A stretch of DNA of 32,000 nt. Source: Rhodobacter capsulatus SB 1003 (GTDB lineage Bacteria > Pseudomonadota > Alphaproteobacteria > Rhodobacterales > Rhodobacteraceae). The notes under the pieces were generated by a model. The model ran no database searches and had not been told where the DNA came from. It saw only the letters and a program-made list of their open reading frames with translations. Both the position numbers and the translations under genes were made by a program. This document shows, piece by piece, positions 1,765-32,000 of this stretch. The number at the start of each line of letters is the position of its first letter. Position 1 is the stretch's first letter. The stretch is from NCBI RefSeq assembly GCF_000021865.1, contig NC_014034.1:2130001-2162000 (forward strand). Reading direction: 5' to 3'.

Positions 1765-2673
1765 ATGAGGTGGCAAGGCCGTCACGGCAGCGACAATATC
1801 GAAGACCGTCGCGGCAGCGACAATATCGAAGACCGTCGCGGTGGTGGCGGGCGGCGGATCTCGCTTGGTGGCGCGGGCGGGCTTGGCCTTCTGGCGCTGG
1901 GGCTGGCGGGCTGGATCTTCGGCATCGACCTGACGCCGCTTCTGAACAGCGAGGGGCTGCACGGGAACGGGATGCCGCGCGAGAGCGCACCGCAGGTGCA
2001 GGAGGGCGGCGCGCTGAGCGCGCGCGACCGGGCGATGGGCGATTTCGTCTCGGTGACGCTGGCCGATACCGAGGAGATCTGGGCCGGGCTTTTCCGCAAT
2101 GATCTGGGCCGGGTCTATCACCCGGCGGTTCTGGTGCTGTTTTCGCAGGTGACGCGCTCGCCCTGCGGCACCGCCTCGGGGGCGACCGGCCCGTTTTACT
2201 GCCCGGCCGACGGCAAGGTCTATCTGGACACGGCCTTTTTCGACACGCTCTCGCAAGAGCTTGGCGCCGCGGGGGATTTTGCCGCCGCCTATGTGGTGGC
2301 GCATGAGATCGGGCATCGGGTGCAGGACGAGCTTGGCCTGCTCGACAAGGTCGAGGCCGCGCGCGCGACAGCCGATCCGGCCACGGCGAATGCGCTTTCG
2401 GTGCGGCTCGAGCTGCAGGCGGATTGCCTGGCCGGGATCTGGGCGCATCACGCGGCGGCGGATTTCGGCACGCTCGAGCGCGGCGACGTGGCCGAGGCGA
2501 TGAGCGCGGCGGCACGGATCGGCGATGACACGCTCGCGCGAAATGCGGGCCGCCGTCCGATGCCCGACAGCTTCACCCATGGCACCTCGGACCAGCGCCA
2601 GTTCTGGTTCGCCCAGGGGTTCACGACCGGCCAGATCGCCTCTTGCGACAGCTTCGCCCGCCGCACGCCCTGA
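1765..2673 (+). CDS. ypfJ: YpfJ-family neutral zinc metallopeptidase
   Basis: Start at ATG 1765 behind GGGAGGGG. N-terminus MRWQGRHGSDNIEDRRG, one TM segment, and the zinc motif VVAHEIGHRVQ (HExxH). Confidence 0.8.
   Translation: MRWQGRHGSDNIEDRRGSDNIEDRRGGGGRRISLGGAGGLGLLALGLAGWIFGIDLTPLLNSEGLHGNGMPRESAPQVQEGGALSARDRAMGDFVSVTLADTEEIWAGLFRNDLGRVYHPAVLVLFSQVTRSPCGTASGATGPFYCPADGKVYLDTAFFDTLSQELGAAGDFAAAYVVAHEIGHRVQDELGLLDKVEAARATADPATANALSVRLELQADCLAGIWAHHAAADFGTLERGDVAEAMSAAARIGDDTLARNAGRRPMPDSFTHGTSDQRQFWFAQGFTTGQIASCDSFARRTP
1786..1839 (+). repeat. Perfect 27-bp in-frame tandem duplication inside ypfJ
   Basis: GGCAGCGACAATATCGAAGACCGTCGC occurs twice back to back (1786-1812, 1813-1839), giving GSDNIEDRR GSDNIEDRR. 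Confidence 0.95.
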
Positions 2674-2820: not shown

Positions 2821-2904
2821 GCGGGTGTGGCGGAATGGTAGACGCGACAGACTCAAACTCTGTTTCCGCAAGGAGTGTCGGTTCGAGTCCGACCACCCGC
2901 ACCA
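2821..2904 (+). tRNA. tRNA-Leu (anticodon CAA)
   Basis: Acceptor stem GCGGGTG/CACCCGC, anticodon loop CT-CAA-AC, long variable arm (class II tRNA), T-arm GGTTCGAGTCC, discriminator A and encoded CCA. Confidence 0.9.
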
Positions 2905-26450: not shown

Positions 26451-26798
26451 ATGACCGACACCCTCCTCGCCACGATCCTCGCGCAGATCGTGCTGCCGAT
26501 CCTCGCCACGATCACCACCGCGCTGATCGGCTGGGCGGCGGCAAAACTGCGCGCCCGCTGGGGCATCGAGATCGAAGCCGCGCAGCGCGAGGCCCTGCAT
26601 CAGGCGCTGATGACCGGCGCGCAGCTCGCCCTGACCCGCCGCGGGCGCCGCGACGACGGCCGCGATCTCGACCTCCTCGCCCGGGATGCTGTCGCCTATG
26701 CCCAGACCTCGGTCCCCGATGCCATCCAGGCCCTCGCGCCACGCGACGGCGTGCTGAAAAATCTCGCCGCGGCCAAGATCGCGGCCCTGAGCCGGTGA
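26451..26798 (+). CDS. Membrane-anchored lysis-cassette protein (spanin-like?)
   Basis: 115 aa with an N-terminal TM (LLATILAQIVLPILATITTALIGWAAA) followed by a charged helical region. Position after the endolysin. Confidence 0.4.
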   Translation: MTDTLLATILAQIVLPILATITTALIGWAAAKLRARWGIEIEAAQREALHQALMTGAQLALTRRGRRDDGRDLDLLARDAVAYAQTSVPDAIQALAPRDGVLKNLAAAKIAALSR

Positions 26799-26837
26799 GA
26801 TCGCCCGCCGGGACACTTCTGTAAAGAGTGACGTTTT

Positions 26838-26874
26838 GGCCTCTTGGGAGGCCAGAGGGGGCGCCAACCCCCTC
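26838..26874 (+). terminator. Two consecutive GC hairpins after the lysis cassette
   Basis: GGCCTC-TTGG-GAGGCC (26838-26853) and GAGGGGG-CGCCAA-CCCCCTC (26855-26874). No T-tract. Confidence 0.3.
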
Positions 26875-26951
26875 CGACACGGGGACACCGCTAAGCACCC
26901 CCGTCGACCAGCCAAAGCTCATGGCCGCTCCCCCCTCGCGAGGGAGGGCCC

Positions 26952-27368
26952 TTGGAACATATTCAGATGATGGAGTCCATGATTCCCGTCGCGCCGGTGG
27001 CCCCTGCGGCACCCTGGCTCGGCGGCAAACGCAACCTGGCGAAACGGATCTGCACGATCCTCGACGAAACCCCCTGCCGGACCTATTGCGAGCCCTTCGT
27101 GGGCATGGGCGGGATCTTCCTGCGCCGCCGCGCCCGCCCGCGGGCCGAGGTGATCAATGATGCGGGCCGCGACATCGCGAACCTGTTCCGGATCCTGCAG
27201 CGGCATTATCCGCAGTTCCTCGAAATCCTGCGCTTCCAGCTGACGGTCCGCAGCGAGTTCGAGCGCCTGCTGGCGACCCGGCCGGACACCCTCACCGATC
27301 TCGAACGTCGCATCCAGGATCGGCTCCAGCGTTTCGGCGATTGCCCCATGAATTATGCGGTCCCATGA
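26952..27368 (+). pseudogene. Dam-type (D12 class) N6-adenine DNA methyltransferase, 3'-truncated
   Basis: PWLGGKRNLAKRI...YCEPFVGMGGIFL...EVINDAGRDIANLFRIL...PDTLTDLER are the N-terminal SAM-binding blocks. Similarity stops at about 27308, no DPPY catalytic motif follows, and the ORF ends inside the 17-bp duplication. Confidence 0.75.
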
Positions 27369-27628
27369 ATTATGCGGTCGGCGATCGGCGGGATCATCAA
27401 CCGCCTAGTGCCGCCCTTGCGCTTGGGAATGTCGACGCGGCGGCAGGGGCCTTGCTGCCAGCCGCCCGCGCGCAATGCCAGCGCAAGATCGCGCAGAGAT
27501 GCGGTGGCCCCTTGGGCAAAGGTGGCGATGGTGACGCCGTCACCCCCCGCCGCGCCGCCGTTTTGCTGGACCTTGAGCCATGAGGCCTGCAGGGTCTCAT
27601 ATTCCGTGGCCTTGAAAAACAGGTCCAT
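27300..27628 (-). pseudogene. Reverse transcriptase gene fragment (N-terminal ~110 codons only)
   Basis: From ATG 27628: MDLFFKATEYETLQASWLKVQQNGGAAGGDGVTIATFAQGATASLRDLALALRAGGWQQGPCRRVDIPKRKGGTRRLMIPPIADRIIHG, which covers RT domains 0-2. The frame stops in the 17-bp duplication. With one copy removed it continues AIAETLEPILDATFE and then hits the methylase gene. Confidence 0.75.
27345..27378. repeat. Perfect 17-bp tandem duplication
   Basis: CCCATGAATTATGCGGT at 27345-27361 and again at 27362-27378. Confidence 0.95.
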
Positions 27629-27731
27629 CTTGCCCCCGCCACATCTTCCGTGTCCTGCGCCCCGTTGCGCCAGACTGCCGCCGAAGTCCAGCCGGTGCAA
27701 CCTTGCTGTTGCCGCACCTCCGTTTGCATTG

Positions 27732-28039
27732 GGTTCCCGCCGTCATCTTGGCGGTGATGTGAGGCTTACCCCATACCCAAGAAAGGAACATCATGGGTTC
27801 AGTCCGCCGTCGTCTTGGCGGTGATGTGAGGCTCTCCCAGCATACCAAACCGCTGGCGACCATCAGGTTCAGTCCGCCGTCGTCTTGGCGGTGATGTGAT
27901 GCACAGGAGAGACCGATGAAAATCACGGCCTTCGGTTCAGTCCGCCGTCGTCTTGGCGGTGACGTGAGGCACCTAAACAAGAGGTTCTACGATGCCGAAA
28001 GGGGTTCAGTCCGCCGTCGTCTTGGCGGTGATGTGAGGC
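27732..28039 (-). CRISPR. CRISPR array: 5 repeats (37 nt, the leftmost degenerate) and 4 spacers (30-33 nt), type VI-A-like repeat
   Basis: Repeats GGTTCAGTCCGCCGTCGTCTTGGCGGTGATGTGAGGC at 27796-27832, 27866-27902 (27900 G>T), 27934-27970 (27963 T>C) and 28003-28039. The degenerate copy at 27732-27765 has a 3-nt deletion plus 1 substitution. Spacers: 27766-27795, 27833-27865, 27903-27933, 27971-28002. The minus-strand reading has the Cas13a handle shape. Confidence 0.95.
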
Positions 28040-28409
28040 TCAGGTCCCGCAAGCCATTGAGACGCCAAGATCTTCAAGCAGGGTTTCGGAACCCTGGACG
28101 ATCAAGGCCGTATTTTGAGACCTTTTTTGCATTTCCGCGCCGCTCCAGTGGCAATTACTCTTTCCGTGTCAGTGTATTGCGCGTTTTCTGAACCCTCCTT
28201 GCCGAATTTCCGACCCGATGCCGCTGCAGGCGGCGGGTTTCGGCAAGCCTAGGCGAAGTCCGATGCGATGGCTACAGGCTTTGTCGCGCCCCGAACGTCG
28301 AAAACCGGGCAGATGGTGCGGCAAATCGGCCCGGCCCAACGGAACTGTTGCGAATGGGCTTGACGGCTTGCATCCTTGCCTTGGTGGGTTTTGTGCTGGG
28401 GGCGCGACA
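28040..28409. promoter_or_regulatory. Putative CRISPR leader and divergent promoter region between the array and cas13a
   Basis: 370-bp non-coding spacer with an AT-richer tract (about 28100-28190). The repeat orientation and the degenerate repeat at the far end place the leader here. A TTGACG hexamer at ~28359-28364 is a candidate -35 for cas13a. Confidence 0.4.
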
Positions 28410-31400
28410 ATGCAGATTGGCAAGGTTCAAGGGCGGACGATCAGCGAATTCGGCGATCCGGCGGGGGGGCTCAAACGCAAGATCAGCACCGATGGCAAGA
28501 ACCGCAAGGAGCTGCCCGCTCATCTGTCAAGCGATCCTAAGGCGCTGATCGGGCAGTGGATTTCCGGGATCGACAAGATCTATCGCAAGCCCGACAGCCG
28601 GAAGTCGGATGGTAAAGCGATCCATAGCCCGACCCCATCCAAGATGCAGTTCGACGCGCGTGACGACCTTGGCGAGGCGTTCTGGAAGCTGGTGTCAGAG
28701 GCGGGGCTGGCGCAAGACAGCGACTACGATCAGTTCAAACGCCGACTGCACCCCTATGGTGACAAGTTCCAACCTGCCGACTCCGGCGCGAAGTTGAAAT
28801 TCGAAGCGGATCCGCCCGAGCCACAGGCGTTCCACGGGCGCTGGTATGGCGCGATGTCGAAACGCGGGAATGATGCCAAAGAGCTTGCTGCGGCGCTTTA
28901 CGAGCATCTGCATGTCGATGAAAAGCGCATTGACGGGCAACCAAAGCGGAACCCCAAGACCGACAAATTTGCGCCCGGCCTGGTGGTGGCGCGGGCATTG
29001 GGGATAGAGAGTTCGGTTCTGCCGCGCGGCATGGCGCGGCTGGCGCGGAATTGGGGCGAGGAGGAAATTCAAACCTATTTCGTGGTCGATGTAGCGGCTT
29101 CGGTGAAGGAGGTGGCGAAAGCCGCAGTGAGTGCTGCGCAAGCGTTCGACCCGCCGCGACAGGTGAGCGGACGATCCCTGTCGCCAAAGGTCGGCTTTGC
29201 CCTTGCCGAGCATCTGGAGCGCGTGACCGGATCGAAGCGCTGCTCTTTCGACCCCGCTGCGGGGCCCAGCGTGCTGGCGCTGCATGACGAGGTGAAGAAA
29301 ACCTACAAGCGCCTTTGTGCGCGCGGCAAGAATGCCGCGAGAGCGTTTCCCGCCGACAAGACGGAGCTGCTCGCCCTGATGCGGCATACGCATGAAAACC
29401 GGGTGCGCAACCAGATGGTCCGGATGGGGCGTGTGTCCGAATATCGGGGACAGCAAGCGGGCGATCTTGCGCAGAGCCATTACTGGACCTCGGCCGGACA
29501 GACCGAAATCAAGGAATCCGAGATCTTTGTTCGGCTGTGGGTGGGGGCCTTTGCGCTGGCCGGGCGGTCGATGAAGGCCTGGATCGACCCGATGGGCAAG
29601 ATCGTCAATACCGAGAAAAATGACCGTGATCTGACCGCCGCGGTCAATATTCGGCAGGTGATCTCGAACAAGGAGATGGTCGCCGAGGCGATGGCGCGGC
29701 GTGGCATCTATTTCGGGGAAACGCCCGAACTGGACCGACTGGGTGCCGAAGGGAACGAGGGCTTTGTCTTCGCGCTGTTGCGCTATCTGCGCGGTTGCCG
29801 GAACCAGACCTTTCACCTTGGTGCCCGGGCTGGTTTTCTCAAGGAAATCCGAAAAGAACTGGAAAAGACCCGGTGGGGAAAGGCGAAGGAGGCAGAGCAT
29901 GTCGTCCTGACGGACAAGACAGTCGCCGCGATCCGCGCCATCATCGACAATGATGCAAAGGCGTTGGGGGCGCGCCTGCTTGCCGATCTGTCCGGTGCTT
30001 TCGTGGCGCATTATGCATCGAAAGAGCATTTCTCGACACTTTATTCCGAGATCGTCAAAGCGGTGAAGGATGCGCCCGAAGTCTCCTCCGGGCTGCCGCG
30101 GCTCAAGCTATTGCTGAAGCGGGCAGATGGTGTGCGCGGTTATGTGCATGGCCTGAGAGACACACGCAAACATGCATTTGCCACCAAGCTGCCCCCGCCC
30201 CCCGCCCCTCGAGAACTTGACGATCCCGCGACGAAGGCGCGTTACATCGCCCTGTTGCGGCTTTACGACGGGCCATTCCGCGCCTACGCTTCTGGCATTA
30301 CCGGAACGGCGCTTGCCGGACCTGCCGCGCGCGCCAAGGAAGCGGCAACCGCGCTGGCGCAAAGCGTGAACGTCACGAAGGCGTATTCCGACGTAATGGA
30401 AGGGCGCACGAGCCGGTTGCGCCCCCCGAACGATGGCGAAACGCTGCGCGAATATCTCAGCGCCTTGACCGGCGAAACCGCGACCGAGTTCCGGGTGCAG
30501 ATCGGGTACGAGTCCGACTCGGAAAACGCCCGCAAACAGGCGGAATTCATCGAGAACTATCGCCGCGACATGCTTGCCTTCATGTTCGAGGATTACATCA
30601 GGGCCAAGGGCTTTGACTGGATATTGAAGATCGAGCCGGGCGCGACGGCGATGACCCGCGCGCCCGTCCTGCCCGAGCCGATCGATACGCGGGGCCAATA
30701 CGAGCATTGGCAAGCGGCGCTCTATCTGGTGATGCATTTCGTTCCGGCCAGCGATGTCTCGAACCTGCTGCACCAGTTGCGCAAATGGGAGGCGCTTCAG
30801 GGCAAATATGAACTGGTCCAGGACGGTGACGCCACGGATCAGGCGGACGCGAGGCGCGAGGCGCTTGATCTCGTCAAGCGCTTCCGCGATGTGCTGGTGT
30901 TGTTCCTCAAGACCGGCGAGGCCCGGTTCGAGGGCCGCGCAGCGCCTTTCGATCTGAAGCCGTTTCGGGCGCTCTTTGCCAACCCGGCCACCTTTGACCG
31001 GCTCTTCATGGCCACACCCACAACCGCGCGCCCTGCCGAAGATGACCCCGAGGGGGACGGTGCGTCCGAGCCGGAACTGCGTGTCGCGCGCACCTTGCGC
31101 GGTTTGCGCCAGATCGCGCGCTACAACCATATGGCGGTTCTGAGCGATCTTTTCGCAAAGCACAAAGTGCGGGACGAAGAGGTGGCCCGCTTGGCCGAGA
31201 TCGAAGACGAGACGCAGGAAAAGTCACAGATCGTGGCAGCCCAGGAACTGCGCACCGACCTGCACGACAAGGTGATGAAGTGTCACCCAAAAACGATTTC
31301 CCCCGAGGAGCGGCAAAGTTACGCTGCGGCGATCAAGACCATCGAGGAACACCGGTTTCTGGTCGGACGGGTCTATCTGGGTGATCATCTGCGCCTGCAC

Positions 31401-32000
31401 CGGTTGATGATGGACGTGATCGGACGCCTGATCGACTATGCCGGGGCTTATGAACGTGACACCGGAACTTTCCTCATAAACGCGAGCAAGCAGTTGGGAG
31501 CAGGCGCCGATTGGGCTGTCACCATCGCAGGGGCAGCCAATACCGACGCGCGCACCCAAACCCGCAAAGACCTTGCGCATTTCAATGTGCTTGACCGCGC
31601 GGATGGCACGCCAGACCTGACCGCTCTGGTCAACCGGGCGCGCGAGATGATGGCCTATGACCGCAAGCGCAAGAATGCGGTGCCGCGCTCGATCCTCGAT
31701 ATGCTGGCACGACTTGGGCTGACGCTGAAATGGCAGATGAAAGATCACCTTCTGCAAGACGCGACGATCACTCAGGCCGCCATCAAGCACCTCGACAAGG
31801 TCAGGCTGACAGTTGGCGGGCCGGCGGCGGTGACAGAGGCCCGTTTCAGCCAAGACTACCTCCAGATGGTGGCGGCCGTCTTCAATGGCAGCGTCCAGAA
31901 TCCAAAGCCACGCCGCCGGGATGACGGGGACGCATGGCACAAGCCCCCCAAACCCGCGACCGCGCAAAGCCAGCCAGATCAAAAACCGCCCAACAAGGCA
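28410..32000 (+). CDS. cas13a: Cas13a (C2c2)-like type VI-A CRISPR effector, RNA-guided RNase. 3' end lies beyond the window
   Basis: Frame is open for 1197 codons from ATG 28410 (after a GGGGG run) to the last base of the window. Two HEPN R-x4-H motifs lie at codons 464-469 and 1052-1057. Adjacent to the CRISPR array. Not in the ORF track because there is no stop in the window; the three long minus-strand ORFs here are its shadows. Confidence 0.93.
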   Translation, partial: MQIGKVQGRTISEFGDPAGGLKRKISTDGKNRKELPAHLSSDPKALIGQWISGIDKIYRKPDSRKSDGKAIHSPTPSKMQFDARDDLGEAFWKLVSEAGLAQDSDYDQFKRRLHPYGDKFQPADSGAKLKFEADPPEPQAFHGRWYGAMSKRGNDAKELAAALYEHLHVDEKRIDGQPKRNPKTDKFAPGLVVARALGIESSVLPRGMARLARNWGEEEIQTYFVVDVAASVKEVAKAAVSAAQAFDPPRQVSGRSLSPKVGFALAEHLERVTGSKRCSFDPAAGPSVLALHDEVKKTYKRLCARGKNAARAFPADKTELLALMRHTHENRVRNQMVRMGRVSEYRGQQAGDLAQSHYWTSAGQTEIKESEIFVRLWVGAFALAGRSMKAWIDPMGKIVNTEKNDRDLTAAVNIRQVISNKEMVAEAMARRGIYFGETPELDRLGAEGNEGFVFALLRYLRGCRNQTFHLGARAGFLKEIRKELEKTRWGKAKEAEHVVLTDKTVAAIRAIIDNDAKALGARLLADLSGAFVAHYASKEHFSTLYSEIVKAVKDAPEVSSGLPRLKLLLKRADGVRGYVHGLRDTRKHAFATKLPPPPAPRELDDPATKARYIALLRLYDGPFRAYASGITGTALAGPAARAKEAATALAQSVNVTKAYSDVMEGRTSRLRPPNDGETLREYLSALTGETATEFRVQIGYESDSENARKQAEFIENYRRDMLAFMFEDYIRAKGFDWILKIEPGATAMTRAPVLPEPIDTRGQYEHWQAALYLVMHFVPASDVSNLLHQLRKWEALQGKYELVQDGDATDQADARREALDLVKRFRDVLVLFLKTGEARFEGRAAPFDLKPFRALFANPATFDRLFMATPTTARPAEDDPEGDGASEPELRVARTLRGLRQIARYNHMAVLSDLFAKHKVRDEEVARLAEIEDETQEKSQIVAAQELRTDLHDKVMKCHPKTISPEERQSYAAAIKTIEEHRFLVGRVYLGDHLRLHRLMMDVIGRLIDYAGAYERDTGTFLINASKQLGAGADWAVTIAGAANTDARTQTRKDLAHFNVLDRADGTPDLTALVNRAREMMAYDRKRKNAVPRSILDMLARLGLTLKWQMKDHLLQDATITQAAIKHLDKVRLTVGGPAAVTEARFSQDYLQMVAAVFNGSVQNPKPRRRDDGDAWHKPPKPATAQSQPDQKPPNKA
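29799..29816 (+). other. HEPN-1 catalytic motif RNQTFH (codons 464-469)
   Basis: Context ALLRYLRGCRNQTFHLGARAG. R-N-x3-H is the canonical HEPN RNase motif. Confidence 0.85.
31563..31580 (+). other. HEPN-2 catalytic motif RKDLAH (codons 1052-1057)
   Basis: Context DARTQTRKDLAHFNVLDRA. Second R-x4-H motif, about 590 residues after the first. Confidence 0.85.

Follow-up and report, generated by a model that had tools for sequence, protein, structure and literature searches.

The CRISPR array beside cas13a in the 32,000-nt stretch of Rhodobacter capsulatus SB 1003 DNA analysed here (the window) raises two questions: which of its strands is read into guide RNA, and whether the few differences among its repeats avoid the part of the repeat on which the effector depends. 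A first-pass annotation of the sequence had proposed that the array is read on the minus strand, divergent from cas13a, and that repeat variation is confined to a dispensable 5' segment. We identify the feature as CRISPR array 1 (spacers 1-4) in the R. capsulatus type VI-A system, transcribed from the minus strand and processed by Cas13a, a reading to which we assign a probability of about 0.95. The array, its strand and the assignment of its handle are already known from published work; what is new here consists of side observations only.

The array (27732-28039, minus strand) is made up of five repeats and four spacers, with coordinates accurate to the base (Table 1). The four near-identical 37-mers recur at a spacing of 67-70 nt, which is far beyond chance, and direct repeats of ∼36-37 nt at regular spacing, separated by spacers of 30-33 nt (32, 31, 33 and 30 nt from the leader-proximal to the distal end), are the hallmarks of a CRISPR array. 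Read on the minus strand, R1 and R4 carry the 37-nt consensus, GCCTCACATCACCGCCAAGACGACGGCGGACTGAACC, which is identical to the published pre-crRNA repeat GCCUCACAUCACCGCCAAGACGACGGCGGACUGAACC. A scan of 26500-29000 against Rfam reported nothing on the array, the sole match being a chance snoRNA (E 0.94). Compared with assembly CP198954.1, the window shows eight G/C-type changes, among them 27926-27929, 21880/21882, 30203 and 30409-30410, and three of the differences fall inside spacer 2 (27926-27929, CGGC versus ACGG); these may reflect either compressions in sequencing or genuine variation between strains. The array of L002 is three units shorter, which we took to be a short-read assembly collapse and not variation.

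Table 1. Features of the array and its surroundings in the window; repeats and spacers run from the leader-proximal to the distal end.
Feature	Position	Strand	Remark
cas13a	28410..32000	+	first 1197 codons in window; gene continues past window end
Leader and divergent promoter region	28040..28409	-	370-nt gap; published promoter fragments map here
Leader motif TCCGAA	28085..28090	-	-51..-46 from first repeat; family pattern TC[AC]GA[AT]
Repeat 1 (R1)	28003..28039	-	leader-proximal; consensus, 37 nt
Spacer 1	27971..28002	-	32 nt; complement has GAGG-N7-ATG
Repeat 2 (R2)	27934..27970	-	A8G (plus-strand 27963 T>C); adjoins Cas13a cleavage site
Spacer 2	27903..27933	-	31 nt; complement has AGGAG-N6-ATG
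Repeat 3 (R3)	27866..27902	-	C3A (plus-strand 27900 G>T); variable, cut-off segment
Spacer 3	27833..27865	-	33 nt
Repeat 4 (R4)	27796..27832	-	consensus
Spacer 4	27766..27795	-	30 nt; oldest; complement has AAGGA-N5-ATG
Terminal repeat 5 (R5)	27732..27765	-	34 nt; lacks A30-C31-U32; loop C21U
RT-Cas1 remnant	27300..27628	-	N-terminal 104 codons; annotated as 91-aa ORF 27356-27628
17-nt tandem duplication	27345..27378	.	perfect; frameshifts RT remnant and makes its TAA stop
Phage D12 Dam methylase fragment	26952..27308	+	N-terminal ∼119 residues

The identity of the locus follows from the effector gene. The 1197 residues of the plus-strand ORF starting at 28410 share 100% identity with PDB 7OS0 chain A (RcCas13a), and the ORF matches the NCBIfam equivalog NF038188 with an E value of 1.5e-208 and 695 bits (cut-off 150). 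Both HEPN R-X4-H motifs are present (RNQTFH, residues 464-469, and RKDLAH, residues 1052-1057), as are the processing residues R1085, N1089 and H1113. Thus, the array adjoins a cas13a with two R-X4-H HEPN motifs, as is characteristic of type VI-A, and the identity to 7OS0 makes the window the well-studied R. capsulatus SB1003-type VI-A locus. The feature is the same locus as the R. capsulatus SB1003 CRISPR array 1-4, and nothing substantive differs from its description in the sections of Kick 2022 (PMC8776769) and Kretz 2024 (PMC11089165) used here, to which all our statements about these two papers refer. In those sections, we found no comment on the repeat SNPs or the R5 deletion and no mention of the truncated RT nature of 'cas1' or of the mobile-element context.

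Published experiments on the identical sequence establish which strand is read, where the RNA is processed and that the promoter is active. The pre-crRNA used by Kick 2022 is exactly GCCUCACAUCACCGCCAAGACGACGGCGGACUGAACC followed by a spacer, and was both processed by and crystallised with RcCas13a (PMC8776769); its repeat maps onto the minus strand of the window at R1 and R4. Cleavage occurs 4 or 5 nt 5' of the stem-loop, as mapped by MALDI, and is abolished by dA6 and dC7 substitutions, while the base-specific contacts in the crystal structure involve loop, bulge and 3' flank, with none to the 5' flank (Kick 2022, PMC8776769). Kretz 2024 draws cas13a on the plus strand, with the four-spacer array ahead of a negative-strand 'cas1', and detects the accumulation of CRISPR1-4 RNA on a northern blot (PMC11089165). 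When we mapped the northern probe to the window, we found that it has the plus-strand sequence at the four intact repeats; the RNA that it detects is therefore minus-strand RNA. RNA of protospacer 6 of array 2, which is complementary to the sense of that array, arrests growth (Kretz 2024, PMC11089165).

The promoter fusions in the same paper agree with this orientation. The array and cas13a promoters have activity that is induced by stress and stationary phase (Kretz 2024, PMC11089165). The reporter-proximal primer of the array promoter-mVenus fragment is plus-strand 28028-28048, so the 292-bp fragment spans ∼28028-28319 and reads leftward, on the minus strand; the cas13a promoter fragment (28139-28451) has a plus-strand reading and overlaps the array promoter fragment. 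The two fragments thus read in opposite ways and overlap, as expected if the array diverges from cas13a and its leader, placed by the annotation in 28040-28409, is shared with the cas13a promoter region. Our own scans of 27200-28500 returned no promoter with a consensus sigma-70 model and one terminator-like site, which is within chance.

On the minus strand, the repeat has the CCGCC/GGCGG stem and 8-nt loop that had been described at first pass, and RNAfold reproduces both, adding a further pair, A11-U32, that closes the hairpin beyond a 2-nt bulge (-9.9 kcal/mol, z -2.5). Read in its transcribed sense, the repeat therefore forms a stem-loop closed by an A-U pair, with 2 nt bulged on the 3' side and a 3' flank beside the spacer, as in type VI-A systems. 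Folding of both strands had been suggested as a check on the orientation; the minus-strand stem-loop was recovered, but the plus-strand repeat is the more stable of the two (-14.2 kcal/mol), so that folding alone cannot settle the strand.

Related repeats were found in several other arrays. A second R. capsulatus array lies directly downstream of cas13a, beyond the window (L001:14027-14201); related repeats also occur in metagenomic locus L011, with a Cas13a that is 38% identical, in metagenomic loci L014, L016, L017, L021 and L026, with Cas13a 45% identical, and in a further array, L018. The comparison set comprised R. capsulatus array 2, L011, L014 (two arrays), L018 and the L016/L021/L026 relatives. 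Scanning genome contigs with Cas13a peptides returned no relative, a word-indexed protein search found only two Cas13a clusters, and the repeat core had zero matches in IMG/VR. The Cas13a of L011 has a precomputed match to a cold-shock domain.

Alignment of six repeat families gives a map of constraint. Invariant across the families are G1, A6, C7, U9, A11, both stem arms, A17, A18, A20, G22-C24, A30-C31-U32 and C37, while positions 2-5, 10, 19, 21 and 33-36 vary. Apart from R5, the only polymorphisms are indeed the two that had been listed, plus-strand 27900 G>T and 27963 T>C. The claim that they fall in a dispensable 5' part holds for one of them: R3 C3A sits in the variable segment (positions 2-5) that processing removes. 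It does not hold well for the other, since A8, which is replaced by G in R2, directly follows the scissile bond or stands one nucleotide further 3', stays in the mature crRNA, and is invariant in the five other related repeat families and in the remaining repeats of array 1; position 8 is not clearly dispensable.

The further claim, that the placement of these SNPs reflects purifying selection on the processed handle, cannot be carried by array 1. The chance that both SNPs fall within positions 1-11 of 37 is 0.088, and with only two SNPs and p ∼0.09 there is no statistical power to demonstrate selection. We give slightly less than even odds to the alternative that the placement is neutral drift in a frozen array. 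Drift would account for A8G, a hit on a base that is invariant elsewhere, which is expected of drift and not of selection, and the destruction of the adaptation gene (see below) means that no new homogenised repeats are supplied. However, the stem, most loop positions and the ACU at 30-32 are fixed in six families while positions 2-5 vary freely, so that the family as a whole shows genuine constraint on the handle. The argument for purifying selection thus comes from the six-family comparison, not from R. capsulatus array 1.

The terminal repeat had been described as having lost ACU and gained one loop substitution, and both changes are present in R5. The loop change, though, is not decay: U at position 21 is the state found in four of the six repeat families, and the L014 terminal repeat bears the R. 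capsulatus-type loop. The loop U of R5 is a tolerated, probably older state and not damage, and terminal repeats seem to preserve former versions of the repeat, as fossils do, and not to be products of random decay. The ACU, in contrast to the loop base, is invariant and forms the bulge and closing pair read by Cas13a, so that a loss of binding is a reasonable inference, and R5 probably cannot load Cas13a. The constraint map is new and modestly useful, in that R2 (with A8G) and the terminal repeat are natural test cases for processing.

The related arrays also bear on the polarity of array 1. Taking the sense from the Cas13a handle, every related array has its variant or decayed repeat at the 3' end, and these six arrays support both the minus-strand reading and the placement of the degenerate repeat at the old end of array 1. 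The pattern TC[AC]GA[AT] is found at exactly -51..-46 from the first repeat in 6/6 related arrays (in L001, L011, L014 and L018 as well as in the window), and may act in leader anchoring or as part of a promoter. In array 1, the leader motif is beside the first repeat, the degenerate R5 is distal, and the leader side is more AT-rich (GC 55%, versus 64% on the trailer side). In L014 and L016, RT-Cas1 and array 1 both point away from cas13a and are followed by the leader, then by cas13a and array 2 in the opposite direction. The gene order is the same in R. capsulatus, while the RT-Cas1 of L014 and L016 is intact; their repeats are 84-92% identical to those of R. capsulatus array 1. The shared layout implies that the divergent minus-strand array is an ancestral feature of the clade.

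The gene on the trailer side of the array is a remnant of such an RT-Cas1. The best full-length relatives of the 91-codon ORF (27356-27628, minus strand) are RT-Cas1 fusions of 660-690 aa, and removal of one copy of the 17-nt duplication restores a gap-free alignment to RT homologues up to residue 104 (window 27300). The methylase homology stops at 27308 and meets the RT remnant tail to tail (27300-27308), the two overlapping by up to 9 nt. To judge from these coordinates, the junction looks like a single deletion that fused a prophage to the CRISPR adaptation module. We rejected an 'RPGR' extension of the RT remnant beyond 27300; the DNA in question encodes, on the opposite strand, the conserved TLTDLER region of the methylase. 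At the R. capsulatus locus we found no Cas1 domain or cas2, and hence no intact RT-Cas1 (RVT_1 plus Cas_Cas1); descent from an RT-Cas1-associated VI-A system is supported by the gene order and the related repeats. Because the Cas1 domain and cas2 are gone, the array is probably frozen, and SB1003 probably cannot acquire spacers with its own module, a further point that is new and modestly useful. The RT of L011 (L011:4555-5181) is also truncated: at 208 aa, it stops past RT motif 3-4 and lacks both the YADD motif and a Cas1 domain. The clade may thus have lost its adaptation gene repeatedly.

The wider surroundings look like those of a mobile element. To the left of the array is a prophage, with TerS, TerL, portal, protease, capsid, tail, holin and lysin genes. 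A tRNA-Leu gene lies at window 2821-2904, and its 14-nt 3' end (2891-2904), GACCACCCGCACCA, recurs once, at L001:17432-17445, 145 nt past a tyrosine integrase gene (L001:16079-17287); cas13a, array 2 and a CorA-like gene all lie to the left of this integrase gene. Just within the tRNA-Leu end sits an excisionase-like HTH_17 gene, and the GC content of the element (0.56-0.62) is below that of its flanks. Since the GACCACCCGCACCA att repeats bracket the prophage, both arrays, cas13a and the CorA-like gene, the VI-A locus lies inside one ∼33 kb element, which could represent either a single prophage that carries CRISPR cargo or a tandem pair of elements joined by the deletion. An exact junction scan of genome contigs for the empty site gave 0 matches, and every context of the flanking Zn-peptidase gene carries the prophage. 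Identification of the prophage as RcapNL was rejected, with a match of only 289 bp at 85%. The CorA-like gene (L001:14316-15866, beyond the window, after array 2) encodes a 516-aa protein with a weak match (PADLOC, E 5e-6). At the start of the Zn-peptidase gene, window 1775-1841 holds a 27-nt tandem repeat of 2.5 copies that encodes a repeated GSDNIEDRR peptide. That the R. capsulatus type VI system travels on a mobile element is a new hint.

The spacers gave no targets in the collections that we searched: the whole array had no protospacer below E 0.3 among phages and plasmids, the four exact spacer cores had zero matches in IMG/VR, and the spacers had no self-matches in R. capsulatus sequence. 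The complements of three of the four spacers (1, 2 and 4) do, however, share a feature, a Shine-Dalgarno motif 5-7 nt ahead of an ATG. None of 20,000 shuffles reached three of four spacers with this motif, and it occurs in 3.6% of sense-strand 31-mers from the neighbouring prophage late region (P ∼2e-4). Across the family, the motif is present in 5/34 spacers in the target sense compared to 0/34 in the crRNA sense. This pattern was noticed post hoc and is to be treated as a lead, a sign from sequence only that the minus-strand crRNAs are antisense to mRNAs. The new hint that it offers is that the spacers of the R. capsulatus array sit on ribosome-binding regions.

If array 1 were an expressed but functionless relic, with spacers that match no circulating target and with the terminal unit and R2 defective, the lack of protospacers in the phage, plasmid and IMG/VR collections and the loss of the adaptation module would both be expected, and only spacer 6, from array 2, has had a functional test in vivo (Kretz 2024, PMC11089165). 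We consider this unlikely. The array is transcribed, is induced by stress and accumulates as CRISPR1-4 RNA (Kretz 2024, PMC11089165), three of its five repeats keep the consensus intact (R1, R3 and R4, with C3A of R3 lying in the variable, cut-off zone), and Rhodobacter phages are scarce in public collections.

The notion that transcription of the array instead follows the plus strand, in the direction of cas13a and of the prophage genes on its left, giving crRNAs whose repeat has the GGUUCAGUCC... orientation, draws on the greater stability of the plus-strand fold and on conceivable read-through from the plus-strand prophage and methylase genes upstream, but is highly improbable, since the published northern probe sees only minus-strand RNA (Kretz 2024, PMC11089165), RcCas13a processes and was crystallised with minus-strand RNA (Kick 2022, PMC8776769), and the decayed repeat and the conserved leader motif would be on the wrong sides.

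With the array read on the minus strand, its working can be proposed as follows. The 370-nt gap, in which the divergent cas13a promoter also lies, holds a promoter that drives leftward minus-strand transcription from R1 to R5. Cas13a binds the hairpin of each repeat, which comprises the stem, the 8-nt loop, the A11-U32 pair, the A30-C31 bulge and the 3' flank, and cuts after A6 or C7, which is 4-5 nt 5' of the stem, to give crRNAs in which the repeat handle is 5' and the spacer 3'. The terminal repeat, without the invariant ACU needed for recognition, would probably not be loaded. The RT-Cas1 module downstream of the array would formerly have added units at the leader end; with the gene now a stump, the array would be frozen. 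The strand and handle assignment matters for the design of RcCas13a guides and probes, and this knowledge is already in use.

A broader history of the locus can be put forward tentatively, and as a whole it is doubtful: that it is decayed RT-Cas1-type VI-A cargo in a ∼33 kb prophage-like element integrated at tRNA-Leu, that one deletion (the RT-Cas1/methylase fusion) destroyed adaptation, and that its spacers and those of its relatives favour the translation-initiation regions of mRNAs. If true, the spacer bias to translation-initiation regions would point to a choice of spacers that is RNA-derived or selected for accessibility.

Compared to known systems, R. capsulatus Cas13a has very low identity to the Leptotrichia and Listeria homologues, with PDB matches that cover only HEPN2 (E 1e-6 to 1e-10), and the stem of its repeat differs from theirs in being GC-rich (CCGCC, 5 bp). 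The Leptotrichia Cas13a repeats have an ACU-containing 3' flank, as does the R. capsulatus repeat. The arrangement of the RNA is alike: in the Leptotrichia and Listeria crRNAs (Lbu, Lsh, Lwa, Lse) and in that of R. capsulatus, a 5' repeat handle is followed by the spacer, the handle has a stem-loop with a 2-nt 3'-side bulge and a basal A-U pair, and the effector processes its own pre-crRNA upstream of the stem, while the base-specific contact to the 5' flank made by Lbu and Lse Cas13a is absent from RcCas13a (Kick 2022, PMC8776769).

Set against the type VI-A/RT1 systems, with RT-Cas1, of Rhodovulum and Rhizobium (Toro 2019, PMC6753606; Toro 2024, PMC11662929), the R. capsulatus locus has the same layout as L014 and L016. 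The alphaproteobacterial Cas13a clade 1 of Toro includes Rhodobacteraceae, R. capsulatus being unnamed there (PMC6753606, PMC11662929). R. capsulatus differs from type VI-A/RT1 in that only 104 N-terminal codons of its RT-Cas1 remain, frameshifted by a 17-nt duplication, and in having no Cas1 domain or cas2. It resembles these systems in the CorA-like gene that follows array 2, which is reminiscent of the CorA genes that have been reported alongside RT-associated type VI-A systems.
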